This document shows positions 3,998 to 39,707 of a stretch of DNA of 64,000 nt, in pieces. The stretch covers positions 635,004 through 699,003 of the forward strand of contig JBBTSC010000001.1 of NCBI GenBank assembly GCA_038064875.1, in the 5' to 3' direction. This stretch comes from Patescibacteria group bacterium. Lineage in GTDB: Bacteria > Patescibacteriota > Saccharimonadia > Saccharimonadales > 2-12-FULL-41-12. The notes under the pieces are model-generated. The model saw only the letters and a list, made by a program, of their open reading frames with translations. It had not been told where the DNA came from and searched no databases. Position 1 is the stretch's first letter; the number at the start of each line of letters is the position of its first letter. The position numbers and the translations under genes are program-made.

Positions 3998-4006
3998 CCT
4001 TGTTAT

Positions 4007-4999: not shown

Positions 5000-5068
5000 A
5001 GGATCATTTTACCATAAGGGTTGTTCCAGGGGCGCAGGAAAAAGCAAATCATCATTGCAGACATAACA

Positions 5069-5097
5069 TTGACAAAAATCAAAATCTATGCTAGAAT
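5069..5097 (+). promoter_or_regulatory. Sigma-70-type promoter for the 5153 gene
   Basis: TTGACA (5069..5074), a 17-nt spacer and TAGAAT (5092..5097), about 55 nt upstream of the ATG at 5153. Confidence 0.5.
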
Positions 5098-5152
5098 TTA
5101 CTATAGTCAAACAAAAAATAAACACCAATTAATATTTGAAAGAATTAAGGCC

Positions 5153-6556: not shown

Positions 6557-6577
6557 GATAACTATATAAAATAGCGA

Positions 6578-9448
6578 CTATTTCTGTTCTTCAGGCGGAG
6601 GTGTTGGTGGTTTAACGGCGTTAGGGTCGAGTCCTTGGCGTATCATTGCTTGTTTTTCGGCATCGCTCATATTGCTACGACCATATTCACGTCGGTACTG
6701 CCTGAAGACAGGATCGTCACGCTGTTTTTCAATAAATTCATTAAAGCTTATTGCTCCACCACCTTCACCGCCCGGTACTTGAACGCCAAGAACACGAGTA
6801 CCAAAGATCTTGCCGTTCTTAGATGAGGCTCCACCCATGGCGTCGTAAAGTCCTGCCACTCCAGCAGTTCTTTGCTTGAAGTATTCTTCTGCAGTGAGCT
6901 TGAGCCCAGTTTTGCCATCCGTAAATGATTTGCCAGCTTGGTAATCTGCAAAGGCATTTTGGACTTCGGCAGACATAACTTTTGCAATATTCTCAGTTGC
7001 CTCACTCTTACCATTTGCAAGGGTATATGCAGGCTGTCCTTCAATTGCCCCGGCGATAAGCTCGGTGTTGGCACTATTAAGTGCTGCTTGCTTGCTGGCC
7101 TCAGTTGCGTTCGGGTCGTTGTAGGCTTTGACTAAATTGTTAAATACGCCAGCGTGGGTGCCAAAGCTGGCTCCACTGATGTCATATCTTTTGGCTCGCT
7201 CGGCATTGGCTCGACCACTGGCGATCAGGTTAAAGGCTTTAAGTGAATCCTGTCCGCCATTTGTAGCTTCGATAATTGCTTGGTGCATCTCACCAGGACC
7301 TTTGCCAAACCCAGTACCAGAGCCGGCGATCTCGTTAATAGCCAGGCTTTCGACAACGTCCGCTGAGGCGTTAGACATAAGTCGAGAGCCTGCCATTGCT
7401 GTACGTTCAGCTTGTTCCTGACTGTAACCCTTTTCATTTCTAAGGAAATCAACCATAGCTGTTCGTTTCTCTGTGGCTGAGCCTTTAGTCTTCATACCTT
7501 TAAGCACTGCATAGTAAGCGTCATCGTTACCGTGAAGAATTTGTGCGTCATAACCGTCTTTGCCCAGTTCGGCTTGTCGACGAAGGTCATGCCCTTCTTT
7601 AACCACTCCAGCATTAAGCCTATAGCCTCCTCTAAATCCTGAGCCATCTTTTTTCAGTCCGGCGGCAACTCCACCAAAGAATTGGTTGCCAGTCATACCT
7701 CTGTTGATACGCCTGTCTCTAGCTTGGTTACGAGCTTTACCGAGGAAGTTATTAGGGTCTTGGCGAGCCTTGCCAATAGCGTCGCGAGCTCTGCCAGACA
7801 AACCTTGAGCTCTATCATTGGCAAGCTTGGCAACTGCGCCGATCGCTCCACCGGCAAATTTGAACGCAAATGGTATCAAAAATAGTGGCAAGTACACAGC
7901 AACCACACCTACCAATATCGCTGCCAGTCCAGCCGTATCATTGAGCGATTCGCTATTGGCTAGAAATATTGCTGCCATAATATCTGACATAGCGAAGATA
8001 ACTGCAATAATAGGATATACAAACAGAGTTTTTGTAAAAAGATTCCACCAAGATTTAAAGTACTTCTCGGTGCCTGGCAGTATGAAACAGGCGATAGCAA
8101 TAGGCGATACAACCGTCAGAAATATAATCAATCCATATCTAATAACCAGGGTCGCCAGAACAGCAATACTGACGAGTACCAGAGATATCATCAGAGGGCC
8201 AAGTAAGCCGAGTGTTGTAACAGCCGTATTGGCAAAACCTTGAACGGCGATAACTTTACCAAGTATCCCCGCACCAATACCACCAGCAGCCACCCCGACA
8301 ACACTCTCTGTGTTAATAGGTAATTTGGGATCATTAAAGGTCCCAGCCGATATAAAAGGGTCTTTTAGGAGTTGGTTGATGCCGGTTCCCACGACCGTCG
8401 TTACATCTATAGCTACGAGACACAAATATATAGACAAGTTGATGCCAATCACTCCGACTAATATCCTCGGCGCCACCTTCTTGGCGGTGTAGGCGTCAAC
8501 TGCATTGAAGCCCCACCCTTCAGTTAGCTGCGATAGTACAAGAATCAACATAATACCAATAAGCAAAATATTGCCAATAGTACGGAATCTCTGCCACGCT
8601 TCGTAAGACGGGTTGCCACCTTCTGCTTGTATCGGAGAGCCCTGCATCAATGGTTTAACTAGGTCCTTAAAAGCAAAGTCAGTAAACTTTGCGCCGATAT
8701 CTATCAGTGGACACAAAATCCAAGACAATGGGTTAACAGAAACTTCACAAGAAGCTTCGGTTTCGCTACTACCGCCACTGCCTGATCCACCTCCCCCACT
8801 GGCTACGACAGCTGGATCGTTGACGGGTTTATCACTTTGCACAGGTTTGCCATCAGCATTAATAACTATTAGTCGCGCATTTCCTACACGATCAATTTGC
8901 TTCTTACAATTTGCTAATGCAGTAGGTTTGATCCCCCAGTAATCACCCGGGAGAGTTTGAAACATACTAGAATCACATCCCAGTGCATCATTGAGTTGGT
9001 TCTGCTTTTCTTTACATTTGTCTTCATTAGGAGAACCGTCTTTGAATTTCTTGCAGTCGTTGCTAGATAACACGCCATGCTGTGCCAGGGCTCTGTTGTA
9101 GCAATCTTTATATTCACCTTGCTTGGTGTACCATTTTTTGTCACCGACACTGGAGTCTTCTGGGTCAGTTCCAATAAATTTTTGATAAAATAATTTGTCA
9201 CTACAGCCCAGCTTGTCCTTAAGTAAGTCTTGCCAATCTTGACAGGTGAATTTGTTTTCGGCACCGACGTCAAATCGATGATCGAGATTATTCAGATCAT
9301 GACAATGCTCTGCAACAAGCAAAAGTATATTGTTCTGCTCGTCCGCATAGACAGGTTTTGGCGATGAGATAAAAGAGGGCGCCAAGTTAAGCACTACAAG
9401 CAGAGTAGACAATGAGCCAAAAATAGCCAATTTCTTGAAAGAAACCAT
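6578..9448 (-). CDS. Giant VirB6/TrbL-like polytopic membrane protein with a Cys-rich ectodomain and a large C-terminal soluble domain
   Basis: Signal peptide (LAIFGSLSTLLVVLNLAPSFISSPKPVYA), then a ~200-aa Cys-rich region and a Gly/Ser linker (ASGGGGSGSGGSS). About 300 aa of successive TM helices follow, then a ~400-aa G/A/K-rich soluble tail. The position and topology fit the VirB6 role. Confidence 0.65.
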   Translation of the reverse strand: MVSFKKLAIFGSLSTLLVVLNLAPSFISSPKPVYADEQNNILLLVAEHCHDLNNLDHRFDVGAENKFTCQDWQDLLKDKLGCSDKLFYQKFIGTDPEDSSVGDKKWYTKQGEYKDCYNRALAQHGVLSSNDCKKFKDGSPNEDKCKEKQNQLNDALGCDSSMFQTLPGDYWGIKPTALANCKKQIDRVGNARLIVINADGKPVQSDKPVNDPAVVASGGGGSGSGGSSETEASCEVSVNPLSWILCPLIDIGAKFTDFAFKDLVKPLMQGSPIQAEGGNPSYEAWQRFRTIGNILLIGIMLILVLSQLTEGWGFNAVDAYTAKKVAPRILVGVIGINLSIYLCLVAIDVTTVVGTGINQLLKDPFISAGTFNDPKLPINTESVVGVAAGGIGAGILGKVIAVQGFANTAVTTLGLLGPLMISLVLVSIAVLATLVIRYGLIIFLTVVSPIAIACFILPGTEKYFKSWWNLFTKTLFVYPIIAVIFAMSDIMAAIFLANSESLNDTAGLAAILVGVVAVYLPLFLIPFAFKFAGGAIGAVAKLANDRAQGLSGRARDAIGKARQDPNNFLGKARNQARDRRINRGMTGNQFFGGVAAGLKKDGSGFRGGYRLNAGVVKEGHDLRRQAELGKDGYDAQILHGNDDAYYAVLKGMKTKGSATEKRTAMVDFLRNEKGYSQEQAERTAMAGSRLMSNASADVVESLAINEIAGSGTGFGKGPGEMHQAIIEATNGGQDSLKAFNLIASGRANAERAKRYDISGASFGTHAGVFNNLVKAYNDPNATEASKQAALNSANTELIAGAIEGQPAYTLANGKSEATENIAKVMSAEVQNAFADYQAGKSFTDGKTGLKLTAEEYFKQRTAGVAGLYDAMGGASSKNGKIFGTRVLGVQVPGGEGGGAISFNEFIEKQRDDPVFRQYRREYGRSNMSDAEKQAMIRQGLDPNAVKPPTPPPEEQK

Positions 9449-9500
9449 AACAATAATGTATCACTTTTTTTCTTCTAGCACCAAAGTGCCTTATCCGAGT

Positions 9501-9529
9501 TTGCAAAATAGTGACATATTTGGAATAAT
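9501..9529 (+). promoter_or_regulatory. Candidate promoter of the pilin-paralog array
   Basis: TTGCAA (9501..9506), a 17-nt spacer and AATAAT (9524..9529), 20 nt upstream of ATG 9549, in the divergent gap facing the VirB6-like gene. Confidence 0.35.
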
Positions 9530-9548
9530 AACCCTGAAGGTAGCAAAA

Positions 9549-10241
9549 ATGAAAATCTTTAATATCAAAATAAAAACATTCTTAATGATCTCTTGTCTGA
9601 GCCTGGCAATTCCCGTGTTTTTCAACAGTAATGCCACTGCCGCGACAGTGAATTGTGGTCCGCTCAATGGTACAGATAAGGCTATTTGTGAAGCGAGCCT
9701 AGAGAAATGTGGCAACACCGATTCCGATAAGGACAAAGCCTGTCGTAGAGGTTTCCGTGAAGGAGCAAAAAAGAACGGTGATGAGATGCGTGATACATGT
9801 ACAGGTTCTAACAAGTCAGAATGTGAAACAGGTTATCGGGCGGGAAAGAGCCAGAGAGATGCTCTAAATAGTGGCACAGGAACCGTGGCGGCGCCACCGG
9901 GAACAATCGGCTCACATCAATGCGGTAATCTCAATGACAAAGACGAGAACGTAAAAACTAAGATCAACTTTGGTTGTTTGGGGACAAAAGCACCGGCCGG
10001 GACCGGACCAATTGAGGACATATTCTTTGCAATAATTCGTTTTCTGTCTAACGGAATTGGAGTATTGATGGTTATAGCTCTTATCGGGGCAGGCATACAG
10101 TACACAACGAGTGAAGGTAATGCAGAACAGACTATCAAATCCAAGAAAAGAATTCAGACAATTATTATGGCGTTGTTCATCTATCTGTTCACCTACGCAA
10201 TACTGCAGTTCCTAATTCCTGGGGGCATCTTCAAGAGATAG
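9549..10241 (+). CDS. T4SS pilin-like (VirB2/TrbC-type) paralog 1 with an enlarged Cys-rich ectodomain
   Basis: I chose ATG 9549 over the track start 9435 because it yields a signal peptide (MKIFNIKIKTFLMISCLSLAIPVFFNSNATA). The ~150-aa mature N-region carries 8 Cys. The C-terminal TM-loop-TM is GIGVLMVIALIGAGIQYTTSEGNAEQTIKSKKRIQTIIMALFIYLFTYAILQF. Confidence 0.7.
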   Translation: MKIFNIKIKTFLMISCLSLAIPVFFNSNATAATVNCGPLNGTDKAICEASLEKCGNTDSDKDKACRRGFREGAKKNGDEMRDTCTGSNKSECETGYRAGKSQRDALNSGTGTVAAPPGTIGSHQCGNLNDKDENVKTKINFGCLGTKAPAGTGPIEDIFFAIIRFLSNGIGVLMVIALIGAGIQYTTSEGNAEQTIKSKKRIQTIIMALFIYLFTYAILQFLIPGGIFKR

Positions 10242-10258
10242 GATATAATTGAAATAGT

Positions 10259-10642
10259 ATGCTTAACATCTTATATCAACTTCAAATCTTTGCAGCCAAC
10301 GGTGAAACTGCAGCCGAGGCGACTTGTCAGAAAGGAAGTTTCTTTTCCTTCCCTACTTGGTATCGGTATCTGCAGGTTGACCCTAAGTACTGTAGTCCAA
10401 AGATAGATAATATAAATGACATTTGGCTTGTTTTGCTTGCAATTGTAGAGATCATGATTCGGCTTGGTGTTATTTTGGCCATCATTTTTGTGATTTACGG
10501 AGCAGTTAGTTTGGTGATTGCACGTGGTACTCCAGAAAAAGTTAACACGGCTCGAGATATGATAATAGATGCGCTCACCGGTCTTGCAATAGGGCTCGTG
10601 GCGATTACGCTCATAACTTTCTTAGGCAGGAGTTTTAACTAA
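10259..10642 (+). CDS. T4SS pilin-like paralog 2
   Basis: Cys pair (C23, C45), then TM1 WLVLLAIVEIMIRLGVILAIIFVIYG, loop ARGTPEKVNTARD and TM2 ALTGLAIGLVAITLITFL. The N-terminal leader is weak. Confidence 0.65.
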   Translation: MLNILYQLQIFAANGETAAEATCQKGSFFSFPTWYRYLQVDPKYCSPKIDNINDIWLVLLAIVEIMIRLGVILAIIFVIYGAVSLVIARGTPEKVNTARDMIIDALTGLAIGLVAITLITFLGRSFN

Positions 10643-10643
10643 T

Positions 10644-10958
10644 ATGTACTACGTAGATTTACTACTTTTAGCTATTACTAAACCGAAGAATTGTGACGAC
10701 CCAAATAATTGTCTAACTACTTTACCGGAAGTCAACGCCTCTGATGGAACAGCAGAGAAAATTTTTGGTATTGTGTTTGGCACCATTGCTGCTGTTGCCG
10801 TATTGATCATTGTGCTGTCAGCGATGAACTGGGCGATTCGTGGTGGTGACCCTGAAGTTATCACTCGCTCACGTAAAGCCATTGTATATGCAGCCATTGG
10901 TCTAGCTATTGCTCTATTGTCAGAACTCTTGGTACTAACACTTTTGGACAGGTTATAG
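10644..10958 (+). CDS. T4SS pilin-like paralog 3
   Basis: Starts 1 nt after the paralog 2 stop. Cys pair NCDDPNNC, TM1 IFGIVFGTIAAVAVLIIVLSAM, loop RGGDPEVITRSRK and TM2 AIVYAAIGLAIALLSELLVL. Confidence 0.65.
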   Translation: MYYVDLLLLAITKPKNCDDPNNCLTTLPEVNASDGTAEKIFGIVFGTIAAVAVLIIVLSAMNWAIRGGDPEVITRSRKAIVYAAIGLAIALLSELLVLTLLDRL

Positions 10959-10960
10959 TA

Positions 10961-11368
10961 ATGAAATTAAAACTTCTATCACTCGCAATTTTATCGACGT
11001 TTTTCGTTATTAGTGCGCAAGCTACAGTTGGTGCGGTTGATCTATTCAAAGGAACTTGTCGTGGTGGTGACACAGCAGACTCAACAGTATGTAAAGACCA
11101 GGCAGAAATCAGTGATAATCCTGGGATAGATGACAACCCTATTTATGGGCCAAATGGAATTATAACGACAGTGACAAATATATTGACCGCTGTAGTAGGT
11201 ATTGGCGCCGTTATCTCAATCGTGTATGCGGGGACAAAGCTCATTTTTTCCGGATCAAATCCACAAGAAGCAAACAGCGCGCGTGAGAGAATCATCTATG
11301 CTTGTGTGGCGCTAGTATTTGTAGCCATGGCCCAAATAATAGTAAGATTTATAATCAATAGGATATAA
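10961..11368 (+). CDS. T4SS pilin-like paralog 4
   Basis: Signal peptide MKLKLLSLAILSTFFVISAQA, Cys pair (GTCRGG...TVCKD), TM1, loop FSGSNPQEANSARE and TM2 IIYACVALVFVAMAQIIV. Confidence 0.7.
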   Translation: MKLKLLSLAILSTFFVISAQATVGAVDLFKGTCRGGDTADSTVCKDQAEISDNPGIDDNPIYGPNGIITTVTNILTAVVGIGAVISIVYAGTKLIFSGSNPQEANSARERIIYACVALVFVAMAQIIVRFIINRI

Positions 11369-11376
11369 TTACAGAT

Positions 11377-11778
11377 ATGACAACAATAATTACACGGATG
11401 TTACTGGCAACTTTTCTCTTCTTTGGAGTGTTGCAGATTTCCTCTGGTCCACCTGCGTTAGCACTAATAGGTTCTGGCGCGAAAGAACAGGCTTGTAAGG
11501 GCGTGGAACTTGACAATGCTACAGGGGCCAATTGTGGCAAGGATTCTAGCAAAGAAACGCAAGATATTGTCCAAACAGTTATTAATATTCTCTCTGCAGT
11601 GGGGGGAATCATAGCGGTCATCGTTATCATAGTGAACGGTATTAGGTTAGTTTTGTCATCTGGAGACTCTGCGAAAGTCAACACGGCTCGCTCAGGGATA
11701 ATCATGGCTGTAGTTGGTTTGTTGGTCATTGCCCTGGCGCAGGCGCTGGTAAGATTTGTAGTAAGTAGAGTCGCTTGA
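11377..11778 (+). CDS. T4SS pilin-like paralog 5
   Basis: Hydrophobic leader, Cys pair (QACKG...ANCGK), TM1 ILSAVGGIIAVIVIIVNG, loop SSGDSAKVNTARS and TM2 GIIMAVVGLLVIALAQALV. Ends in TGA. Confidence 0.7.
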   Translation: MTTIITRMLLATFLFFGVLQISSGPPALALIGSGAKEQACKGVELDNATGANCGKDSSKETQDIVQTVINILSAVGGIIAVIVIIVNGIRLVLSSGDSAKVNTARSGIIMAVVGLLVIALAQALVRFVVSRVA

Positions 11779-11839
11779 TGATCGATAAGTATTGTGCTAT
11801 AAAATAAACAGAGATATATAAGAAAGGAAACTTCTAAAA

Positions 11840-12262
11840 ATGAAAAAATTTATCAAACAAATAGTAACAACACTGAGCTTGGCGATGGTCATGCTTCTTC
11901 CCGCTCTTGTGTCAACAAGTGCTTTCGCAGCAAATATTGACGGTAGTTTATGTAAAGGCGCTGATTTGAAATTCAGTGGCGATGCAAGTAGTGCAGATTG
12001 TAGCACTACAGAACAAGCTGGTGCTGGCCTGGACAAATTGATCACAGATGTAGTTAACATCTTTTCAGTTGTTGTTGGTGTGGTCGCTGTGATTATGATC
12101 ATCTACGGTGGCTTCCGCTACATTACATCTGGTGGTGATTCAGGAAATGTTACTAATGCAAAGAATACTATTCTTTATGCATTAGTCGGACTTGTTATAG
12201 TGGCCCTAGCTCAATTTATTGTAAAATTTGTGCTTAACAAAGCCACCGGCCTCGGTAGCTAG
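11840..12262 (+). CDS. T4SS pilin-like paralog 6
   Basis: Signal peptide ending AFA, Cys pair (SLCKG...ADCS), then VVGVVAVIMIIYGGFRYITSGGDSGNVTNAKNTILYALVGLVIVALAQFIV. Confidence 0.75.
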   Translation: MKKFIKQIVTTLSLAMVMLLPALVSTSAFAANIDGSLCKGADLKFSGDASSADCSTTEQAGAGLDKLITDVVNIFSVVVGVVAVIMIIYGGFRYITSGGDSGNVTNAKNTILYALVGLVIVALAQFIVKFVLNKATGLGS

Positions 12263-12273
12263 AGGGTAAGAGA

Positions 12274-12711
12274 ATGAAAAACATACTCTTAACGCTAGCA
12301 GTCAGTTTTGGGCTGTTTGGTTTGTCACTTGGTGTAGTTAACAACGGGACAGCAGCTGCCTCTACTAAAGGAGAGCTCTGTAGTGGAGCTAACCTAGACA
12401 TCAGTGGTGGAAGTGGCGCGGGCTGTGGCGACAGTAGTGCCTGTAGTGATGATGATAAAAATAATGACGAAGGTTGTGATTCAGAAAAGCTTAATAAGCT
12501 CATTAATACTGTGGTGAATGTTTTTTCCGTTATTGTCGGGGTAGCCGCAGTTATCATGATCATCTATGGTGGATTTAGGTATATTACGTCAGGTGGCGAC
12601 TCAGGGAACATCACCACCGCAAAGAATACTATTCTTTATGCATTAGTCGGACTTGTTATAGTGGCCCTAGCTCAGGGCATCGTCAGGTTCGTACTCAGTA
12701 ACCTTAAATAA
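12274..12711 (+). CDS. T4SS pilin-like paralog 7
   Basis: Leader, 4 Cys in a G/S/D-rich segment, then IVGVAAVIMIIYGGFRYITSGGDSGNITTAKNTILYALVGLVIVALAQGIV. It shares a 56-nt identical tract with paralog 6. Confidence 0.75.
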   Translation: MKNILLTLAVSFGLFGLSLGVVNNGTAAASTKGELCSGANLDISGGSGAGCGDSSACSDDDKNNDEGCDSEKLNKLINTVVNVFSVIVGVAAVIMIIYGGFRYITSGGDSGNITTAKNTILYALVGLVIVALAQGIVRFVLSNLK

Positions 12712-22632: not shown

Positions 22633-23484
22633 ATGGCTATGAATGAAGTGGGGCTGGGCGAAGCGTTGCAACAAGCACGTAAAAATAAAGGTTTGACCCA
22701 GCAACAGCTGTGTCAGGTCACTGGTCTTAGTTATTCCACTCTTGCAAAAATTGAGCGTGGAGCTATCAAATCACCGTCAGTATTTACCGTCGCCCAGATC
22801 ACAAGCGCCCTTGGGATCAGCATAGACGAAGTTGTCGGTTCAGTCCCCTCTAAGACTCTGACGAACCAGAGAAAGACTGCAAAAAATGGCGTAAAGTTCG
22901 TTTACTTTGACATAAACGGTTGCTTGGTTCGATTTTATTACCGAGCATTTACTCAAGTTGCACTTGATTCAGGTGCTTCACCAGAACAAGTAGAAGAGAT
23001 ATTCTGGCGCTACAACTCAGAAGTGTGTTCTGGCAACTTAGAACTCGAGCAGTTCAATAAGAAGATAGCAGAAAAGATCAATTTACCAGGCTTCAAGTGG
23101 CAAGAATACTACCTAAAGGCAGTTTCCCCTATAAAAGAAACAGCCGAAGTTATTGCTTGGGCAACACAGTACTACGGTCTAGGAATATTAACTAACATCA
23201 TGCCAGGTCAAATAGACGACGTTATCAAAGCAGGACTCATACCAGACATTCAGTACGATCAGATAATTGATTCTTCAAAGGTAGGGCTGATAAAGCCAGA
23301 TCCAGCAATTTACGAACTTGCCACAAAGCGAGCAGGAGTTAGTCCTGAAGAAATACTGTTTGTTGACGACGAGAGAGCTAACTTAACAGAAGCCAGCAAA
23401 CAAGGTTGGCACACACTTTGGTTTGATGCTTTTGACACAGAAAAATCCGCACAGAAAACCCGCGACGCTCTCGCTTTTAATTAA
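22633..23484 (+). CDS. XRE-type helix-turn-helix domain fused to a HAD-superfamily hydrolase domain
   Basis: The N-terminal HTH is LGEALQQARKNKGLTQQQLCQVTGLSYSTLAKIERG. The C-terminal HAD motifs are FVYFDINGCLV (motif I, DxN variant) and LFVDDERANL (motif IV). Confidence 0.7.
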   Translation: MAMNEVGLGEALQQARKNKGLTQQQLCQVTGLSYSTLAKIERGAIKSPSVFTVAQITSALGISIDEVVGSVPSKTLTNQRKTAKNGVKFVYFDINGCLVRFYYRAFTQVALDSGASPEQVEEIFWRYNSEVCSGNLELEQFNKKIAEKINLPGFKWQEYYLKAVSPIKETAEVIAWATQYYGLGILTNIMPGQIDDVIKAGLIPDIQYDQIIDSSKVGLIKPDPAIYELATKRAGVSPEEILFVDDERANLTEASKQGWHTLWFDAFDTEKSAQKTRDALAFN

Positions 23485-24858
23485 CTAAGCTTTCTCAATA
23501 GCGATAGATAATTCTTTTACAATATTTCCTATATCTGCTGCGCCCGCCTTTGCTTCGCCCCAGATCCTGACAACAGGCTCAGTCCCTGAAGTTCTAACAA
23601 CTACCCGCCCAGAGTCTCCGAGCTGATCTTTGATTTCGCTAATTTTAGCTTGAATCTGCTCATTTTCCTCGATCTTTGGAGCGTTAGGATCAATACGAAC
23701 AGCAACTTTCGCCTCTGGCCACAGGGCTAGATTTCTATAAATATCCGAAAAGGTCTTTCCGCTTTTAGCGACATATGATGCAAACCAGGCGGCCATTCGT
23801 ACTCCATCACCGCTAGATAGCCAGTTCGTATCAACATGATGTCCAGTAAATTCTCCACCTCGCGTCCAGTTATCGCCTTTAGCTTGTCGAGCTACAAGCC
23901 CTGCGGTCACTGCTGTATCTCCGTTTTTACATTGCTCAAATTGAATTCCTCGTGCGCGCAAAGCCTCAACCAAGCCAGTGTTTGTGTAAAGAGTTCCCAC
24001 TATACCAGGCTGACCTTGAGCGAGCGCATAAAGTACATGGTTACCGGTGATTTCACTCATCAAATTTCCGTCAAAACCGACGCCCATCATACGATCACCA
24101 TCTCCATCATTTGCAATTGCACCTACAAAGTTAGGATCAGCTGTTATCTCAAGGTGACTTTTCAAATAATCTTTCACGCCCTCTAGATTAGCAGCACCAC
24201 AGTTTTCGTTAATATTGCCAGCCCCATCACATGCGAATTCATGTACCACAGCACCAAGTTCTCGCAGTATCTCAGGAGTAAATTTCATAGTTGCTCCATT
24301 AGCCCCATCAACAACAAAAACCTTGTCTTTTAGTGGTTTTATGCCAAATTCTTGTTCGATACTTTGCACAACTTGGGTGATGTACCAATCTGCAAGCTCT
24401 GGTTTTTCCACTACTGTTCCAGAACCATTTTTGGTAATTGTCTTGTCAAGGTTCTGCCAATAGATATTGCTAATATTTCCAGCTTCTTCGTTGGTGATTT
24501 TGTCTCCAGAGATTGCAGCTTTCCAGCCATTGTCTGTGTATGGATTATGACTTGCAGTGATCATAACTGCCAAGGCTTTGAACTGTCCCGCAATTTTAAA
24601 AGTTGCTGGCGTAGGAATTACGCCCAAGTCCCAAACTTCTATCCCTGCATCTACTCCAGCCTGCACCACCGCCTTTGCTAGTATCGAGCCCGATGGACGA
24701 CTGTCTCGTCCAACAACCATGACTTTATATTGGCTCGCGTATTGGATTAGCGCCTGGGTAAGGCCATATAGAGTCTCGCTGTTGAGTAGTACTGACCCAG
24801 CTTTTTCAGTGTATTCTCCACGAAATCCATCAGTGCCGAAGAGAGATTTTTGACCCAT
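23485..24858 (-). CDS. glmM: Phosphoglucosamine mutase / phosphohexomutase
   Basis: Active-site loop TASHNPYTDNGWK, metal-binding DGDGDR and sugar-binding GEFTGH. The start overlaps the valS stop (TAATG). Confidence 0.88.
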   Translation of the reverse strand: MGQKSLFGTDGFRGEYTEKAGSVLLNSETLYGLTQALIQYASQYKVMVVGRDSRPSGSILAKAVVQAGVDAGIEVWDLGVIPTPATFKIAGQFKALAVMITASHNPYTDNGWKAAISGDKITNEEAGNISNIYWQNLDKTITKNGSGTVVEKPELADWYITQVVQSIEQEFGIKPLKDKVFVVDGANGATMKFTPEILRELGAVVHEFACDGAGNINENCGAANLEGVKDYLKSHLEITADPNFVGAIANDGDGDRMMGVGFDGNLMSEITGNHVLYALAQGQPGIVGTLYTNTGLVEALRARGIQFEQCKNGDTAVTAGLVARQAKGDNWTRGGEFTGHHVDTNWLSSGDGVRMAAWFASYVAKSGKTFSDIYRNLALWPEAKVAVRIDPNAPKIEENEQIQAKISEIKDQLGDSGRVVVRTSGTEPVVRIWGEAKAGAADIGNIVKELSIAIEKA

Positions 24859-27419
24859 TAGCTCCCGGCTCCGTATCTTTCTATCTGCGAAGCTACAAGC
24901 TCTTGTTCTTTCTTTAGTTCAATAATTGTATCCTTTGTCTCTTGAACTAATTTATCAGGGGCTTTTTCCAGATAATTCTTATTTGCGAGTCTTGATTCCA
25001 AAATCCCAATCTGTTTTTTAATATCAGCCAACTGCTCAGCCAATTGTTTATTGAACCTCTCAGCAGTGTCAAAGTCGATATCTAGCCAGCATTTCTCCTC
25101 GGTACTTATCAGAGAAAGTCCTCGCCCGTCTTGGACACTTGCTACATTATCAAGATTGGCAAGGGCGCCAATTAGATTAGACTGTGATGATATGAAGGGC
25201 GCACGAATATAGTACAGATTGCCTTTTTTGATACGAAGAGCTGTTTTAATATGTCGAATCTCTGACACTACCTTTTGAACTTTTGCAAAATCGTTAGATT
25301 TGCCATCAGAAAACTCAGCAATATTTGGCCAGGGTTGATTTATCAGCAGACTATCTTTATCTGGGTGCAGTGTTTGCCAGATAGTTTCAGTCAAAAATGG
25401 CGCCAACGGATGAGCTATTTTCAGAACGGAACTCAGCGTATGAGCCAAAATAGAGGCATTTTGAGCGGTTTTTGAAGCTTCTATGTACCAATCCGCAAAA
25501 TCATCCCAAACGAAGTGATATAGCACGTCGTAAGCTTCACTGAGCCGATAATTTTCCATGTACTCATCTATCTGAGTTACCGTTTGCGCCAATCTAGATA
25601 AAATCCAATGATCGGCTTCAGTTTTTGGCTTCGGATCAAAGCTTTTCAATGGTTTTTGGTCTAACTTATCTTCGACAAATCTGGCAATATTCCAGATTTT
25701 GTTACAAAAGTTCCTGGCTTCTTCTACTCTTCGACTATCATAACCTCTGTTGACTCCTGCACTTCGCCCAGCCAACAGCCCCATCCGCAGAGCATCTGAG
25801 CCGTATTTTTCAATTACAGGCATTGGGTCTATTACGTTGCCGACAGATTTACTCATTTTTGACCCATCTTCAGCCATCACATAGCCGTGAATGTAAACTT
25901 CACTAAAAGGAATCTCACCCTTTTCGTACAGCCCGAGCATGATCATTCTGCTTACCCATGGCTGGAGTATTTCTCCACCAGTCTCCATCAGGCTATTTGG
26001 ATAAAATTGTTTTTGGTCTTCGCCGGAAAGTGTTGCATAGGGCCAGGAAGAGCTAGTGAACCAAGTATCGAAGACATCAGGGTCACGTCTGTAGGTCTTG
26101 CCATCTTTTTCAATCTGTTCTTTGTCAATTTCGTCGCAGTAAATCCAGTCTTCATTATCACTGATATTCACAAAAGCCGGTATTGGTACGCCCCACGCGA
26201 TCTGCCTGGAAATATTCCAATCTCTCAGATTTTCGAGATAGGCAATCAACTGAGTTCTTCGGGTATCTGGATAGAAAGTAATTTTCTTTGCTTTTAGGAC
26301 TTTTATAGCTTCTTTGGCCAGAGGTTGCATATCAACGAACCATTGCTCTTTGACCATCGGTTCGATCACCGTGCCACATTTGTAACAGTGGCCAACGCTG
26401 TGCAAATGGTCTTTAATTTCTACCAAGAGGCTATCTTTTTCCAAATCTTCCACTACTTTCTTACGAGCGGATGCAACATCCAGGTCTTGATATTTCTCTG
26501 GCGCATTATGGTTAATCTTTCCGCTATGACTAATAACTTGGATCATAGGCAGATCATGTCGCTTCCCTACCTCAAAGTCGTTGAAGTCATGAGCTGGAGT
26601 TATCTTGACCGCTCCTGTGCCGAAATCTTTATCAACGTAGGTATCAGCAACAATAGGAATCTCCCGTTTCGTCAGTGGCAAGTGAACAGTCTTCCCTACC
26701 ATCTCCTTATACCTCGGATCTTTTGGATGAACCGCTACGGCTGTGTCACCTAGCATGGTCTCAGGTCTTGTAGTAGCAACTATAATCTCCCCACTACCAT
26801 CAGTCAGAGGATACTTGATAGACCAGATTTTGCCATTAACTTCTTTGTGCTCTACTTCGATATCAGCAAATCCAGTACCGTGAAATGTGCAGTAATTAAC
26901 TAGTCGCTCACTTCGGTAGATGAGCCCCTCGTCCCACATTTTCTTAAATGTTTTGTAAGCTTGGTCAATTATCTTTTGGTCCAGTGTAAAAGTATATCGT
27001 GTCCAGTCACAACTCGCACCCATTAGCCGAATTTGTTTTTCAAATACACCTCTGTTATCGTCTACAAAATCCCAAATCTGGCTGTAGAGCTCTTCCCTAC
27101 TAAAATCAAATCTGCTTTTGCCGTCTTTTGCTAGTTGTTTTTCGTAGACAGACTGTGTTTCAAATCCAGCATGATCAGACCCCGGGAGATATAAAGCGTT
27201 CTTGCCCTTGAGTCTGCGGTGCCGAATCACCGCATCCTGAATAGCCACCGTGAGCCCCATGCCGATATGCAGATTCGCATTGGCATTTGGTGGAGGCATA
27301 ACGATAGTAAATGAATCTTTCTGACTTCCCTTTTTCGGCGTGAAGGCGCCAGCGCCTTCCCACAGATCGTAGATATCAGATTCGTATTGCTGTGGTTCGT
27401 AGTTCTTGGCCAACTTCAT
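24858..27419 (-). CDS. valS: Valine--tRNA ligase
   Basis: HIGH-type motif PPPNANANLHIGMG, KMSKS (SKMSKSVGN) and a C-terminal coiled coil. I chose ATG 27419 (MKLAKNYEPQQYE) over the track start 27488. Confidence 0.95.
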   Translation of the reverse strand: MKLAKNYEPQQYESDIYDLWEGAGAFTPKKGSQKDSFTIVMPPPNANANLHIGMGLTVAIQDAVIRHRRLKGKNALYLPGSDHAGFETQSVYEKQLAKDGKSRFDFSREELYSQIWDFVDDNRGVFEKQIRLMGASCDWTRYTFTLDQKIIDQAYKTFKKMWDEGLIYRSERLVNYCTFHGTGFADIEVEHKEVNGKIWSIKYPLTDGSGEIIVATTRPETMLGDTAVAVHPKDPRYKEMVGKTVHLPLTKREIPIVADTYVDKDFGTGAVKITPAHDFNDFEVGKRHDLPMIQVISHSGKINHNAPEKYQDLDVASARKKVVEDLEKDSLLVEIKDHLHSVGHCYKCGTVIEPMVKEQWFVDMQPLAKEAIKVLKAKKITFYPDTRRTQLIAYLENLRDWNISRQIAWGVPIPAFVNISDNEDWIYCDEIDKEQIEKDGKTYRRDPDVFDTWFTSSSWPYATLSGEDQKQFYPNSLMETGGEILQPWVSRMIMLGLYEKGEIPFSEVYIHGYVMAEDGSKMSKSVGNVIDPMPVIEKYGSDALRMGLLAGRSAGVNRGYDSRRVEEARNFCNKIWNIARFVEDKLDQKPLKSFDPKPKTEADHWILSRLAQTVTQIDEYMENYRLSEAYDVLYHFVWDDFADWYIEASKTAQNASILAHTLSSVLKIAHPLAPFLTETIWQTLHPDKDSLLINQPWPNIAEFSDGKSNDFAKVQKVVSEIRHIKTALRIKKGNLYYIRAPFISSQSNLIGALANLDNVASVQDGRGLSLISTEEKCWLDIDFDTAERFNKQLAEQLADIKKQIGILESRLANKNYLEKAPDKLVQETKDTIIELKKEQELVASQIERYGAGS

Positions 27420-27481
27420 ATACAGAGCATTATAACAGATTAGGAACATCTTCAAACAACCTATGTATAAGTCAAAGACTA

Positions 27482-27510
27482 TTGACAAAATAGCAAATAT
27501 TTGCTATTAT
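27482..27510 (+). promoter_or_regulatory. Consensus promoter with a 16-bp perfect palindromic operator in the spacer (copy 1)
   Basis: TTGACA (27482..27487), a 17-nt spacer and TATTAT (27505..27510). The palindrome TAGCAAATATTTGCTA spans 27491..27506. The 25 nt TTGACAAAATAGCAAATATTTGCTA recur exactly at 30919. Confidence 0.7.
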
Positions 27511-27547
27511 ACTGAACGATACATCAAAACAAAAAGGAACAACGACA

Positions 27548-28147
27548 ATGCCAAGAAAGCAACCAAAACATAATAGATCACCAATCATAGCTACAGGCTT
27601 GGTAGTAGGGGCTGTAAGCCTATTAGCAGGACATGAAATTGGGCAGAATACTGGTAATGCAAATCGTGTTCCACCTCTTAAAAACGTACCTTCGCGTGCT
27701 GATCTCGGAGAGGCTACTATGACACAACAGGCAGAATATCTTGATGCTAAGAGACTAGAGCAAACAGCTAATAAGGTGAGTAAGCTCACTCCGGAATCTG
27801 TTGCAAAAGCCAAGGATGTGTCTGATGTAGCATCTAACATTCAGGATGTACTTTTTGGGTTGCACGCAAAAACAGGGGCAGAAATGCCAGAAATAGCTGA
27901 TGAGTACTTGCAAGAAGGAGTTATTGAGGCCCTCAACGCTCAAAATATCTACTTTTTACCGAGGGAAGATGATAGCCCTCATTGCTTCAATATGTTTAGC
28001 AAAACAGACGCTAATAATGTCGAAAGTGTTTATGTGCCATATCTGAGCCCAGACGACCCAAGTGTTCGTATTGGAGAAGTTGTGGCTGATCCTCGAGAGC
28101 AACAGCGTTCAGTTGTTGGTAAAAGTGCTGTCCATATAAATCAGTAA
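27548..28147 (+). CDS. Hypothetical single-pass membrane protein
   Basis: 199 aa with a basic N-terminus and a TM (IIATGLVVGAVSLLAG). I recognise no motif. It is driven by promoter/operator copy 1. Confidence 0.6.
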   Translation: MPRKQPKHNRSPIIATGLVVGAVSLLAGHEIGQNTGNANRVPPLKNVPSRADLGEATMTQQAEYLDAKRLEQTANKVSKLTPESVAKAKDVSDVASNIQDVLFGLHAKTGAEMPEIADEYLQEGVIEALNAQNIYFLPREDDSPHCFNMFSKTDANNVESVYVPYLSPDDPSVRIGEVVADPREQQRSVVGKSAVHINQ

Positions 28148-28362
28148 CCAGTTCTGTTTGAACGTGGAAATAGGTAAAAAAGCATACATCAATATAGGCC
28201 TTTGAGTGCTCGCTTGCAAAAGCTTATATCGTCATACCCTTGAATGTCAGTTTTGGCTTTTATTTTTCGCGCCCGGGGTAGCTACCCAGTTTGCTTTTTC
28301 GTACGTTTTTGTTTTCAATTTTCAGTATATTCCTAAAACATAAGCGATGCAAGTATAATTTT

Positions 28363-29427
28363 TTACATCTGTAAAGATGGCTCAATCTGCAGAGATTCGT
28401 AATTTGTCACTCGTCCCTTATTCTTGTAGATTTGGTAGCCTAGTGAGGCTATCATCGCGCCGTTATCTGTGGAGAGTCTTGGATCGGTCTCATGTAGCCT
28501 GGATCCAAACAGTTCATGCGCACGCACGCGTAAATACTGATTGGCAGAGACGCCACCTGTGATAATAATACTCTTCGGGTTGATCCCTTTTTCTGCCTTT
28601 ACTAGCTTATCCAGCAATGTTTCGATAGCAGTGTATTGGAAACTAGCTGCGATGTCAGCCTTCTGGCCATCTGATAAGTGTTTGGCGAGCTCAAAACTAG
28701 GGAAGGAGTGATCCTTACCAACCTCTTTTTGAGCCAGACGAAGAACAGCAGTTTTAAGTCCTGAAAAGCTAAAGTCATAAGGAAAGTCAAGTCGAGATTT
28801 TGGCAGGGCGTAGGCCTGGGGATTACCCTTCTTTGCTAACTTGGCAATACTTGGCCCACCCGGGTATGGCAACCCTAAAATCTTGGCTACTTTATCAAAG
28901 GCTTCGCCAACAGCATCGTCTCTCGTTTGGCCCAAAATAGTGTACTCAAGAGGGCTTTTGTAGTGAACAATTTGAGTATGTCCACCACTGACAATGAGGC
29001 AGAGGGCAGGGAACTCAGGTGCGCGTTCGGGTAGTCTAAGATCTAGCATGCTCTTAGTTAGAAAATTTACTGCCATGTGTGCTTGAACGTGGTTTACGGG
29101 AATGAGGGGTTTTGTGTGCATCTGCCCAAGGGTTTTGGCTGTCATCACCCCCACTAGCAAACTTCCACCTAGCCCTGGCCCATATGTCACAGCTATGGCG
29201 TCGATATCGTCCCAAGTGCACCCCGCTTGCGCGAGCGATTGTTCCAGCACAGGAATCATATATTCTGACTGTGCCCTGGCTGCTACTTCTGGCACAATGC
29301 CCCCATACTGCACGTGTGCATCCATAGAAGATGCGACAACGTTTGATAGTAGTTCATTGCCACTACGAACAATGCCCACACTGGTTTCATCACAACTCGT
29401 CTCTATTCCTAGCACTATCACAACCAC
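28363..29427 (-). CDS. tsaD: tRNA N6-adenosine threonylcarbamoyltransferase TsaD (Kae1/Gcp family)
   Basis: GIETSCDETSVGIV at the N-terminus, the metal-binding H-x-x-x-H context (VNHVQAHM) and SGGVSANQYL. GTG start. Confidence 0.92.
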   Translation of the reverse strand: MVVIVLGIETSCDETSVGIVRSGNELLSNVVASSMDAHVQYGGIVPEVAARAQSEYMIPVLEQSLAQAGCTWDDIDAIAVTYGPGLGGSLLVGVMTAKTLGQMHTKPLIPVNHVQAHMAVNFLTKSMLDLRLPERAPEFPALCLIVSGGHTQIVHYKSPLEYTILGQTRDDAVGEAFDKVAKILGLPYPGGPSIAKLAKKGNPQAYALPKSRLDFPYDFSFSGLKTAVLRLAQKEVGKDHSFPSFELAKHLSDGQKADIAASFQYTAIETLLDKLVKAEKGINPKSIIITGGVSANQYLRVRAHELFGSRLHETDPRLSTDNGAMIASLGYQIYKNKGRVTNYESLQIEPSLQM

Positions 29428-29613
29428 GCACCGCCTTTGCCTGCTAGCTCGCAGAGCGAGCTACTCTGCAAAGCCTCTTGGACTACAATAAATTTTTCTT
29501 TTGAGATACTCCCTTCACTGTACTGTTGGTACAGCTCGGTCTGTTTCTCAAAGAGAAAATTCATTCTAGTCTCAAGTGCGGTGGCTGTGATCATCTCTGG
29601 TATTATATGTCAT

Positions 29614-30903
29614 ATGAAGATGCTCAAGAAACTGGTTAGAAAGATCTTCCCAAAGCAACTTGCTGAGGGTTTGGCTGACGCATTTCGTTTTATAAGGGGT
29701 TGGTTCTGGCGAGCGTATTATGGTTTTCCAAGTGTTGGGCAGAAGATCATTGCGGTCACTGGCACCAACGGCAAGACTACAACTGTTAGTTTTATAAATG
29801 AAATGCTTAAAGCTAGTGGTCAGAAGACAGCGGTTTTGACCACTGCATATTATGAGATTGACGGGAAAAAAGAGTTCAATGCTACTCACAGGACACTGGG
29901 TTCACAGAAAGATGCTCAAAAATTTCTAGCCAAAGCACGAAAGGCAAATGTCGACATCGTGATCATGGAGATTACTAGCCATGCGCTCGTACAGCGCAGA
30001 GTAGAGGGGCTTAAATTTGAAGGGGTAGCTATAACAAATCTAGCTCAAGACCATCTAGATTATCACGGAACAATGGAAGAATACGCACGAGCAAAATCCC
30101 TTGCCATAACAGATTATGATGCGCAGTGGGTGGTGCTAAATGCGAGTGATGAATGGTTCAAATTTTTTAAAGAACGCGTTAGCAAAAACCAGAAGTTAAT
30201 AACGTTTGGCGAGACAAAGACTGCAGATATTCAGCTCAAATCATATGCGAAAAATGCAACCCAAGTTGCGGTAGAAATCAGTGATGATGGCAATACTCAG
30301 GAATTTGATATCCAGCTCATTGGCAAATTCAACGTGCTCAATGCAGTGACAGCTTATGCGGTTGGATCAGCCCTGGATCTTGATCCTAAAAAGGCAGGAG
30401 AGGGTCTAGGCAATCTGATAGGTGTTGATGGGCGGATGGAAGAGATCAAAGAGGGCCAGAACTTTAGGATATTTGTAGATTATTCATATGCATCTGATCA
30501 ACTGGCAAGTGCGATAGAGGCAGGCAGAGAAATAGCCGGAGATGGGAAAGTCTCTGTAGTGTTTGGCGCGACTGGTGATCGTGATCAAGCCCACTGGAGA
30601 TTGATGGGAGAAGGCGCGGTTGGGGCAGACAAAATCTATCTAACAGATGATGAGACTTACCAAAATGACCCTGACGTTATCAGAAAAACAGTTATGGAAG
30701 GCATCAAATCTAAGGGAACAAAAGCGGTAATAACAGAGATACCGGACAGAAAAGAAGCCATAAAAACAGCATTTTCAGAAGCTGAGTCAGGAGAAATTAT
30801 TATACTTGCTGGCCTAGGACATCAGGACTACCGAGATATGGGGGGCAAGAAATTGTCTTGGAAAGAAGCCGAAGTAGCCCGGGAACTTCTCTCACAAATA
30901 TAA
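29614..30903 (+). CDS. murE: Mur ligase family protein, MurE-like
   Basis: ATP-binding loop AVTGTNGKTTT, and the DGRME motif characteristic of MurE-type ligases. I chose ATG 29614 (MKMLKKLVRK) because the track start 29437 overlaps the tsaD upstream region. Confidence 0.8.
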   Translation: MKMLKKLVRKIFPKQLAEGLADAFRFIRGWFWRAYYGFPSVGQKIIAVTGTNGKTTTVSFINEMLKASGQKTAVLTTAYYEIDGKKEFNATHRTLGSQKDAQKFLAKARKANVDIVIMEITSHALVQRRVEGLKFEGVAITNLAQDHLDYHGTMEEYARAKSLAITDYDAQWVVLNASDEWFKFFKERVSKNQKLITFGETKTADIQLKSYAKNATQVAVEISDDGNTQEFDIQLIGKFNVLNAVTAYAVGSALDLDPKKAGEGLGNLIGVDGRMEEIKEGQNFRIFVDYSYASDQLASAIEAGREIAGDGKVSVVFGATGDRDQAHWRLMGEGAVGADKIYLTDDETYQNDPDVIRKTVMEGIKSKGTKAVITEIPDRKEAIKTAFSEAESGEIIILAGLGHQDYRDMGGKKLSWKEAEVARELLSQI

Positions 30904-30918
30904 CAAGCTAAAGCTTAC

Positions 30919-30947
30919 TTGACAAAATAGCAAATATTTGCTACTAT
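30919..30947 (+). promoter_or_regulatory. Consensus promoter with the same 16-bp palindromic operator (copy 2)
   Basis: TTGACA (30919..30924), a 17-nt spacer and TACTAT (30942..30947). The palindrome TAGCAAATATTTGCTA spans 30928..30943. Confidence 0.7.
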
Positions 30948-31013
30948 AGGTCTTGTAAATATAAAACAAAACAAATACAATATAAAATTCACAAAAATTA
31001 ATAAGGAAACCCC

Positions 31014-31667
31014 ATGTTACAAGGAAGCAATAACGAACCAACTCAATCACAAGACTCAGCTATAGATAGCACAGCTAAAACACCTGCTGAGAGGCAAGGT
31101 AAAAGAAACGACCATGCAGGAGAGCCTAGCACGGAAGGAGCTATAGATCATTTTGCACAAAATCGATTCGCAAAATACGACGGACCTGGAGGTGTAGACA
31201 CAGGTGATGACCCTTCGGTTGGTCTCGGTAAAGAATTACATGAACGTCGAGATGAAGCAGAAGAAGATCGAAAAAAGAATGCACGTAAGAATAAAGTCGT
31301 TGCCACTGTATCAGGTGTAGTTGCAGTAGGCGCATCAATAGTTGCTGGAGTGATGCATAATAATGATGGTGATGTTTCTACTACTCCTCTGAGAGACGGT
31401 GATAAACCGGCTCTGTCTGTGCCTAATGATGCTTCGTTAGCGCCAACTCAACCAGCGCAAGTTAGATATAATGGTGTACACACTGCCGACGCACCAATGC
31501 AATCTAATCTACCAACAGCACCAGAGGACAGAGCCTTCGGACAAGAGCTAGCTGAACGGAACAAACAATCCGAGCAACGAGCTGCCGATGCTCTCAATGA
31601 AGTGACAGGTGGCGCACCTGCATCTGACCCAGCTGAAACTGGTGGCGCAGCCCCACAAACTCAATAG
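31014..31667 (+). CDS. Hypothetical single-pass membrane protein with disordered flanks
   Basis: 217 aa with an acidic, disordered N-terminal half and a central TM (VVATVSGVVAVGASIVAGV). The C-terminal part is P/A/Q-rich. It is driven by promoter/operator copy 2. Confidence 0.6.
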   Translation: MLQGSNNEPTQSQDSAIDSTAKTPAERQGKRNDHAGEPSTEGAIDHFAQNRFAKYDGPGGVDTGDDPSVGLGKELHERRDEAEEDRKKNARKNKVVATVSGVVAVGASIVAGVMHNNDGDVSTTPLRDGDKPALSVPNDASLAPTQPAQVRYNGVHTADAPMQSNLPTAPEDRAFGQELAERNKQSEQRAADALNEVTGGAPASDPAETGGAAPQTQ

Positions 31668-31689: not shown

Positions 31690-31716
31690 CTAGCACTCGC
31701 TTGCGTTGAGTGCTAG
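31690..31716 (+). promoter_or_regulatory. CIRCE (HrcA operator) upstream of groES-groEL
   Basis: CTAGCACTC-N9-GAGTGCTAG, against the CIRCE consensus TTAGCACTC-N9-GAGTGCTAA. It overlaps a candidate promoter (TTGCGT 31701..31706, 17 nt, TATTCT 31724..31729). Confidence 0.9.
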
Positions 31717-39335: not shown

Positions 39336-39707
39336 TTAGGATGCTAGCTTTTGCTTGACTCGCTCTGCCACTTGACGTGGAGTCATCTCTGCTTTGACTA
39401 TAAAATCTAGGACGTCGAGTCCTTTGATGCTTGGTGGAGCTTCTTGCTCTCCCATGTTAGTGAGGATTATTACCTTAATTTTCTTCCCCCAAGGTTCCTG
39501 GCGCATTTTGGTCAACATCTCGTCGCCGTTCATATCTGGCATCATTAGATCAAGTAATAGGATATCTGGCTTCATTTCCTCAACCATCTCAAGACCGAGG
39601 ACACCTCCGTTTGCAACTTCTACAATGAACCCTTCGGATTCAAATTTTACTCGATACATCTGAGATATAGTTTGATCATCTTCGACAATCGCAATTTTTT
39701 GTGCCAT
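39336..39707 (-). CDS. Stand-alone response-regulator receiver (CheY-like) protein
   Basis: IAIVEDD, the phospho-acceptor context LLLDLMMPDMNG, and VIILTN...K. There is no output domain. Confidence 0.88.
   Translation of the reverse strand: MAQKIAIVEDDQTISQMYRVKFESEGFIVEVANGGVLGLEMVEEMKPDILLLDLMMPDMNGDEMLTKMRQEPWGKKIKVIILTNMGEQEAPPSIKGLDVLDFIVKAEMTPRQVAERVKQKLAS

Follow-up and report, generated by a model that had tools for sequence, protein, structure and literature searches.

Palindromic operators built into the core promoter itself are a textbook kind of regulatory element. Sites with which a promoter dyad may be compared include the Cro/CI and XRE-type operators, the LexA boxes of the SOS response, the CIRCE/HrcA heat-shock operators and the MerR-type spacer operators, where activation needs a spacer of 19-20 bp. 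Putative mobile promoters, that is, identical promoters upstream of non-homologous genes, come from the concept of promoter propagation in prokaryotes. To our knowledge, almost nothing is known of gene regulation in the Patescibacteria (candidate phyla radiation, CPR), whose small genomes encode very few regulators. Here, we describe a palindrome-bearing promoter that occurs twice in a 64-kb stretch of contig JBBTSC010000001.1, from the metagenome-assembled genome (MAG) of a groundwater member of the Patescibacteria/Saccharibacteria. This whole stretch, 64,000 nucleotides long, is called the window below; it lies ~10 kb from dnaA, and the two promoter sites ~40 kb from dnaA. The promoter is a real, conserved cis-element and, judged from its sequence, a good candidate for a regulatory switch in this little-studied group.

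The 25-mer TTGACAAAATAGCAAATATTTGCTA is present at 27482-27506 (copy 1) and, without a single difference, at 30919-30943 (copy 2), as an earlier note on this DNA had reported, and it completes a consensus-like promoter at both positions. A third match was absent from the window at up to three mismatches, and none of 100 shuffles gave any match. Scanning 10 kb beyond each window end (20 kb) revealed no additional copy, which leaves two copies of the element in ~84 kb. Alignment of the two copies extends the shared unit to 29 nt with one mismatch, located in the -10 element (TATTAT in copy 1 and TACTAT in copy 2). The flanks beyond these 29 nt are unrelated and cannot be aligned; a longer dispersed repeat or a miniature inverted-repeat transposable element (MITE) is therefore ruled out, given also the number of copies. 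In a consensus scan of the region between 22 and 36 kb, both sites rank among the best sigma-70-like matches (11/12 and 10/12, with a 17-bp spacer), and both carry TG at -15/-14, giving a TG-extended -10 and the general form TTGACA-17-TAnnnT. Among the proteins encoded in the window is a primary sigma factor that has regions 3 and 4.

The spacer of both copies contains an exact 16-bp palindrome with the halves TAGCAAAT and ATTTGCTA (27491-27506 and 30928-30943). In copy 1 the perfect palindrome is actually 20 bp long (AATAGCAAAT and ATTTGCTATT, 27489-27508). The dyad is centred at -19/-18 and, in its perfect 16-bp and 20-bp forms, covers -12/-11 and the TG, so that the overlap with the -10 described earlier is borne out and extends to the TG as well. 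On its own, one perfect palindrome of 16 bp or more would be nothing unusual, since simulated windows contain 1.2 on average. The signal therefore rests on the exact duplication and on conservation across genomes. The only other perfect 16-bp palindrome of the window (TTCTTTATATAAAGAA, 53465-53480) falls within the coding sequence of argS and can be explained by chance.

Relatives fetched through their proteins (loci from other genomes are designated L001, L002 and so on) keep the synteny of the region at an overall DNA identity of 80-85%. The copy 1 promoter is 100% conserved in L001 and L002, and copy 2 is conserved in L001-L006, L041, L066, L076, L094 and L095. In an alignment of nine copy 2 orthologues, whose downstream proteins are as little as ~22-36% identical, the -35, the sequence GCAAATATTTGC and the TA with which the -10 begins never change. 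Variation is found at -27 to -25 (AAATA, AATAC, AATAA), at the inner positions of the -10 and in parts of the leader, and the left outer TA of the palindrome is replaced by AC, AA, GG or TG. The conserved 12-bp core is thus GCAAATATTTGC, and the bare dyad AGCAAATATTTGCT. Two orthologues, P0010/L094 (33% identity) and P0011/L095, were found by protein profile alone and are therefore unbiased with respect to the motif; both carry the exact core in register. In L041, where TsaD, MurE and GroEL are 75%, 53% and 82% identical to those of the window, both slots are occupied and the site at the copy 1 position matches the core at 11/12. Conservation of the palindrome upstream of orthologues, which had been suggested as a check, therefore holds for the core, including in the two orthologues recovered without the motif. 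It follows from these alignments that the perfect 16-mer and the 25/25 identity are lineage features and that the deeply conserved unit is the 12-bp core. Indeed, although the 16-bp palindrome is exact in both copies, its outer TA..TA is partly the -10 itself; likewise, the 25/25 identity is true here but lineage-specific, with AATAC instead of AAATA in copy 2 of the close relatives L001-L003.

The element is not restricted to this region. A reference scan with TTGACA-N5-GCAAATATTTGC against 185,579 genomes gave 58 matches, of which 20 continue with TAnnnT in register, compared with ~1 expected by chance. Thirteen of these 20 promoter-form matches belong to Patescibacteria, mostly labelled Saccharibacteria or Saccharimonadales. 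We take the share of the Saccharibacteria clade in the scanned bases to be well under 1%, a rough estimate of our own; given this estimate, the Saccharibacteria count is hundreds of times above the chance expectation. The seven promoter-form matches in Firmicutes and Arcobacter are about at chance level among real promoters. A metagenome scan provided 29 further matches, most of them Saccharibacteria-like, and three matches in viral contigs, none with a -10, were read as chance. In 246 kb of Saccharibacteria DNA used as a control, the other TTGAC(A/T)-17-TAnnnT sites match the core at no more than 8/12 positions, with the exception of one 11/12 orthologue. This argues that the element is discrete and not the tail of a general spacer preference: the only generic features of the control promoters are an A-rich stretch from -28 to -26 and T-15 G-14. 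The groES, hsp20 and tRNA promoters of the window also lack the core. The element is thus far more widespread than the small regulon proposed in the earlier note, recurring in front of many genes across the Saccharibacteria. The motif string is absent from the searchable literature, where no description of Saccharibacteria promoter motifs was found either. This particular element, its clade-wide distribution and its link to replaceable orphan cargo appear to be undescribed.

The two copies are embedded in a compact region with the gene order valS (24858-27419, minus strand), copy 1, gene 1, tsaD (28363-29427, minus strand), a gene for a MurE-like ligase (~29614-30903), copy 2 and gene 2, followed by a canonical CIRCE (31690-31716), groES and groEL. 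Both downstream open reading frames (ORFs) exist as described before, with one hydrophobic segment each, and no Pfam or NCBIfam family passes the threshold for either product. For gene 1, an orphan, 5.8 billion proteins yielded no more than 2 homologues. The gene 2 family comprises only 6 representative clusters in 1.84 billion proteins; its members carry an invariant GVHTxDAP..LP motif after the hydrophobic segment and are always encoded directly upstream of groES/groEL. The structure predictions of both proteins are of low confidence (mean predicted local distance difference test, pLDDT, 52.6 and 50.1). The similarity that had been perceived between their transmembrane (TM) and juxtamembrane stretches is not significant (BLASTP E = 0.15), and paralogy of the two unrelated proteins is rejected. 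Upstream of gene 2, the A/C-rich leader is better conserved than the protein itself. It holds a second promoter-like site, TTGTAA-17-TACAAT (30953-30981), invariant in 8 of the 9 orthologues and missing in L041.

When all instances are considered, the promoter precedes 33 distinct ORFs in the correct orientation, starting 0-92 nt downstream. They fall into 21 families unrelated by BLAST, of which only ~8 have a hydrophobic segment, so that membrane proteins, initially taken as the common theme, are not what these genes share. An acidic character is much more widespread, with a pI of 5.6 or less in 30 of the 33 proteins. No Pfam or NCBIfam family passed the threshold for ten of these cargo proteins from other genomes. 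Independent support for the promoter assignment comes from L039 and L071, whose ATG coincides with the predicted +1, precisely 7 nt past the -10, which points to a leaderless mRNA. In L021, L022, L039, L071 and L078, a stand-alone response-regulator receiver gene is followed by a conserved GCATAAGCATA and then by the palindrome promoter; in L039/L078 and L071 a leaderless M(E/D)TPKPT... protein comes next. The window homologue of this receiver gene (39336-39707) has no palindrome promoter after it.

Cargo replacement is apparent at the copy 1 slot, where three mutually unrelated genes are found behind the same promoter (the first in the window and L001, the second in L002 and the third in L041 and L073). 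The replaced segment is sharply bounded, on the left by the conserved promoter and leader up to ~27534 and on the right by the block at 28162-28362. This block contains the terminator-like sequence GGGTAGCTACCC followed by a T-run, together with a half-CIRCE-like TTTGAGTGCTCGCTTGC; no significant fold, covariation, Rfam family or conserved small ORF was detected in it. The slot gene of L002 (6188-7036) encodes a protein of 283 aa with a HEMGH motif (HExxH, zinc-protease-like) and no Pfam or NCBIfam family. Copy 2 displays a mosaic at 30890-30930. The gene 2 protein is 89% identical to that of L001 and 69-72% identical to those of L004-L006, but it is L004-L006 that the window matches in the murE 3' end, in the bases preceding the -35 and in the N5 variant (AAATA). 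This implies a recombination breakpoint at or near the promoter.

The interpretation that we favour, to which we give roughly an even chance, is that the operator of a dimeric repressor is built into a strong sigma-70 promoter. The 12-bp dyad GCAAAT/ATTTGC at -24 to -13 would be the putative operator of a dimeric DNA-binding protein conserved in Saccharibacteria. The bound dimer would cover the TG and the upstream edge of the -10, occluding sigma regions 3 and 2.4, and would thereby exclude RNA polymerase and repress an otherwise strong promoter. Since the hexamers are near consensus and the 17-bp spacer is optimal, the promoter is probably intrinsically strong, which makes repression the natural reading. 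We know of no base-specific requirement of RNA polymerase at -24 to -16; a dedicated protein is favoured because these positions are invariant in the nine gene 2 orthologues and because other promoters lack the core. Promoter and operator would then constitute a conserved module at fixed chromosomal slots, in which the driven gene evolves fast or is replaced. The regulated set would be made up of orphan proteins that are lineage-specific and for the most part acidic, with some anchored in the membrane or secreted. Two other kinds of site were rejected. A MerR-type spacer operator does not fit a spacer of 17 bp in all instances rather than an over-long one of 19-20 bp. A parS centromere site is excluded by a sequence unrelated to the consensus TGTTNCACGTGAAACA and by the constant -35/-10 register of the sites, although their distance from dnaA would suit such a function.

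Several observations weigh against an operator. All instances share a single -35/-10 register whereas operators often occupy varied positions, although the pattern scans imposed this register, so that its uniformity is largely a consequence of the search. Most instances were ascertained by exact match, and invariance of the core is proven only for the orthologues ascertained through their proteins. Dyads longer than 12 bp show no significant excess in Saccharibacteria: palindromes of at least 16 bp are present in 8/25 Saccharibacteria instances and in 2/15 unrelated promoters caught by the same pattern, and those of 20 bp are found in the few cases in which N5 and -10 match (L040, L060 and copy 1). 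The right half of the dyad overlaps the generic TG-extended -10. The same 12-mer is present in a few genuine Firmicutes and Arcobacter promoters and is thus compatible with ordinary promoter function. Finally, no helix-turn-helix (HTH) gene recurs beside the motif in other genomes and no binding protein was found.

The main rival explanation, which we consider possible but rather unlikely, is that the 29-bp unit is a promoter module working without a dedicated regulator. It would be a very strong constitutive promoter with a spacer optimal for the RNA polymerase of the clade, maintained because high expression is favoured and spread between loci through recombination in the manner of a 'mobile promoter'; the dyad would have arisen incidentally, as a mirror image of the TTTGC in the extended -10. 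The single register, the coincidence of the right half-site with the generic T-15 G-14, the lack of significant enrichment in dyad extension and the small number of regulators in these small genomes are all in its favour. So are the occurrence of an identical spacer in genuine promoters from unrelated phyla, such as that of an Oscillospiraceae tRNA (L054 and L067), and the signs of recombination at both copies. This explanation leaves the invariant G-24 C-23 A-22 A-21 A-20 unaccounted for by established RNA polymerase-spacer contacts. Moreover, the core is missing from other promoters of these genomes that are strong or serve housekeeping genes, the distribution being bimodal and not graded, and its retention at orthologous loci, where protein identity falls to 33%, calls for purifying selection on the spacer and more than mere copying. 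A role of the element as a divergent control region, in which the dyad and an opposite-strand TATAAT would form a bidirectional promoter co-regulating valS and gene 1, seems very unlikely. The perfect TATAAT shows the 1-bp-offset geometry typical of bidirectional promoters, the valS start is 128 nt from gene 1 and copy 2 has TATAGT at the corresponding position; the minus-strand TATAAT (27511-27506) was missed by the consensus scan since its -35 is weak. However, a divergent gene is absent at copy 2 and at most other instances, and in L002 a 185-nt insertion parts valS from the conserved block upstream of the promoter, which stays with gene 1. An influence on valS, raised in the earlier note, is therefore conceivable through the opposite-strand TATAAT, but tight coupling is not conserved. 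A reverse-strand promoter with a -10 derived from the left half-site is rejected, the TA being lost in the AATAC, AATAA and AAAGG variants.

Two described stress regulons were also considered. A reading as an SOS (LexA) box, through which damage would induce small membrane proteins (division inhibitors, for instance), would account for a 12-20 bp palindrome overlapping a promoter, and genes 1 and 2, being small, lineage-specific and single-pass, are reminiscent of YneA, SidA and ChiZ. Nevertheless, we judge it highly improbable: none of the ~33 downstream genes is lexA, recA or uvr, the ten cargo proteins scanned have no Pfam family, most cargo has no TM segment and LexA was not found in a survey of the window ORFs. 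A variant of the CIRCE/HrcA heat-shock operator is suggested by the TAGCA..TGCTA outer arms, which resemble CIRCE, by a genuine CIRCE 750 bp downstream of copy 2 and by the conserved order gene 2-groES-groEL. This explanation is hardly credible, since CIRCE consists of 9-nt arms 9 nt apart (TTAGCACTC-N9-GAGTGCTAA) whereas the half-sites of the dyad abut, and the outer TA responsible for the resemblance is not conserved. In addition, most other instances lie away from chaperone genes, and the window hsp20 lacks the motif.

If the dyad is indeed an operator, a candidate regulator can be proposed by domain type only. The same ORF survey found one recognisable sequence-specific DNA-binding protein in the window, an XRE/Cro-C1 HTH fused to a HAD-IA hydrolase (Table 1), whose gene is syntenic in L001 and L002. 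The earlier statement that the window holds no identifiable regulator is thus correct insofar as nothing links any protein to the motif, but it overlooks this fusion. With this unusual domain combination, the protein could act as an enzyme-repressor in the manner of BirA or NadR. Against its involvement, and with it against the operator reading, no motif-like site or inverted repeat was found upstream of its gene. Furthermore, an iterated XRE-HTH search of all Saccharibacteria loci retrieved only the proteins of the window and L001 and a small HTH protein of L094 (30% identical). The start of the fusion gene appears almost leaderless, with TATTAT immediately before the ATG.

Table 1. Position of the promoter copies, the genes that they precede and associated features in the window.
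Feature	Position	Strand	Description
Candidate regulator: XRE/Cro-C1 HTH fused to HAD-IA hydrolase	22633..23484	+	Candidate by domain type only
Block upstream of copy 1 -35	27429..27481		Conserved with L001 and L002; stays with the gene 1 promoter, not with valS
Promoter copy 1	27482..27510	+	-35 TTGACA 27482-27487; spacer 27488-27504; -10 TATTAT 27505-27510; TG 27502-27503
Copy 1 core palindrome, halves GCAAAT and ATTTGC	27493..27504		-24 to -13; invariant in orthologues
Opposite-strand TATAAT	27506..27511	-	Possible divergent promoter towards valS (start codon 27419); 1-bp offset from the plus-strand -10
Copy 1 predicted start	near 27517	+	Leader ~31 nt
Gene 1	27548..28147	+	199 aa; single hydrophobic segment (residues 10-28) after a short basic N-terminus; some helix in the C-terminal part
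Conserved non-coding block closing the copy 1 slot	28162..28362		~200 nt; 96% identical in L002, 82% in L041
Promoter copy 2	30919..30947	+	-35 30919-30924; spacer 30925-30941; -10 TACTAT 30942-30947; TG-extended
Copy 2 core palindrome	30930..30941		Perfect palindrome 16 bp (30928-30943)
Gene 2 leader	30948..31013	+	A/C-rich; nearly invariant in most orthologues
Copy 2 predicted start	near 30954	+
Gene 2	31014..31667	+	217 aa, acidic; one hydrophobic segment, residues 93-111

Other features of the region deserve mention in their own right. The gap between tsaD and the MurE-like gene is occupied by a strongly self-complementary element of ~185 nt (29425-29612), with a fold z-score of -8.0 on the minus strand and -4.6 on the plus strand and a minus-strand TATAAT at 29606-29601. 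It has no Rfam match. A 75%-identical copy is located in L002 at 5901-6084, between valS and promoter copy 1, and the tsaD/murE gap of L001 and L002 is devoid of it. It looks like either a small mobile (MITE-like) element or an undescribed structured leader. An Rfam search of the window retrieved three tRNAs only, and permissive scans of 28120-28420 and 29380-29660 gave nothing credible. The canonical CIRCE downstream of gene 2 (CTAGCACTC-N9-GAGTGCTAG, 31690-31716) precedes groES (31803) and groEL (32089) and overlaps a TTGCGT-16-TATTCT promoter with TG; an hrcA gene was not found in the window. Towards the start of the window, a type IV secretion or conjugation-like cluster (1095-12711) includes genes for a TraG-like ATPase (1095-3020), a TraC-like protein, a PrgI-family protein (4007-4999), a TrbL-like protein of 956 aa (6578-9448) and six tandem VirB2/TrbC-type pilin paralogues (10259-12711).

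The cis-element is short, sharply defined and better conserved than the genes that it drives, whose products are fast-evolving orphans. Through it, a set of 'dark' proteins with a probable common expression can be recognised, and the pairing of a constant promoter with exchangeable cargo suggests a way in which accessory genes turn over in such genomes. The 12-bp element also offers a handle on Patescibacteria regulation, as a probe for a binding protein and as a native promoter for Saccharibacteria genetic systems. A broader proposition, speculative and in our opinion improbable as a whole, is that a single Saccharibacteria-wide repressor controls, as a set, hypervariable acidic proteins of exported type in 'expression slots' with recombining cargo. 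The proteins would be membrane-bound, secreted or otherwise exported, and the cargo would be exchanged at the conserved promoter and 3' blocks. Such an organisation would amount to a regulated, cassette-like system for the proteins with which these episymbionts act on their hosts, and to the first regulon to be defined in the Patescibacteria.

Among described systems, CIRCE/HrcA shares with the element the TAGCA...TGCTA arms and, for copy 2, the proximity of groESL, but the spacing between half-sites is 9 bp shorter here and the outer arm bases are not conserved. LexA SOS boxes share the palindrome over the promoter, and the products of genes 1 and 2, as small, fast-evolving, single-pass membrane proteins, would be in keeping with them; in contrast, no instance is associated with lexA, recA or uvr, and most cargo is non-membrane. 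Cro/CI and XRE-type operators (phage 434, lambda OR, SinR boxes) have in common with the present sites a short dyad of 12-20 bp between the -35 and the -10 and two or more near-identical copies per genome, and a dimeric HTH protein bound there would exclude RNA polymerase. Unlike these operators, the sites described here are neither clustered nor cooperative, and they front chromosomal orphans at conserved slots instead of forming a phage switch; moreover, the sequence of the dyad is undescribed and its cognate protein is putative. Mobile promoters, finally, share the identical promoter before unrelated genes and the signs of recombination at the promoter boundary. Here, however, only ~29 bp are shared, and the element, far from having spread recently, is stably inherited at orthologous loci across deep divergence.

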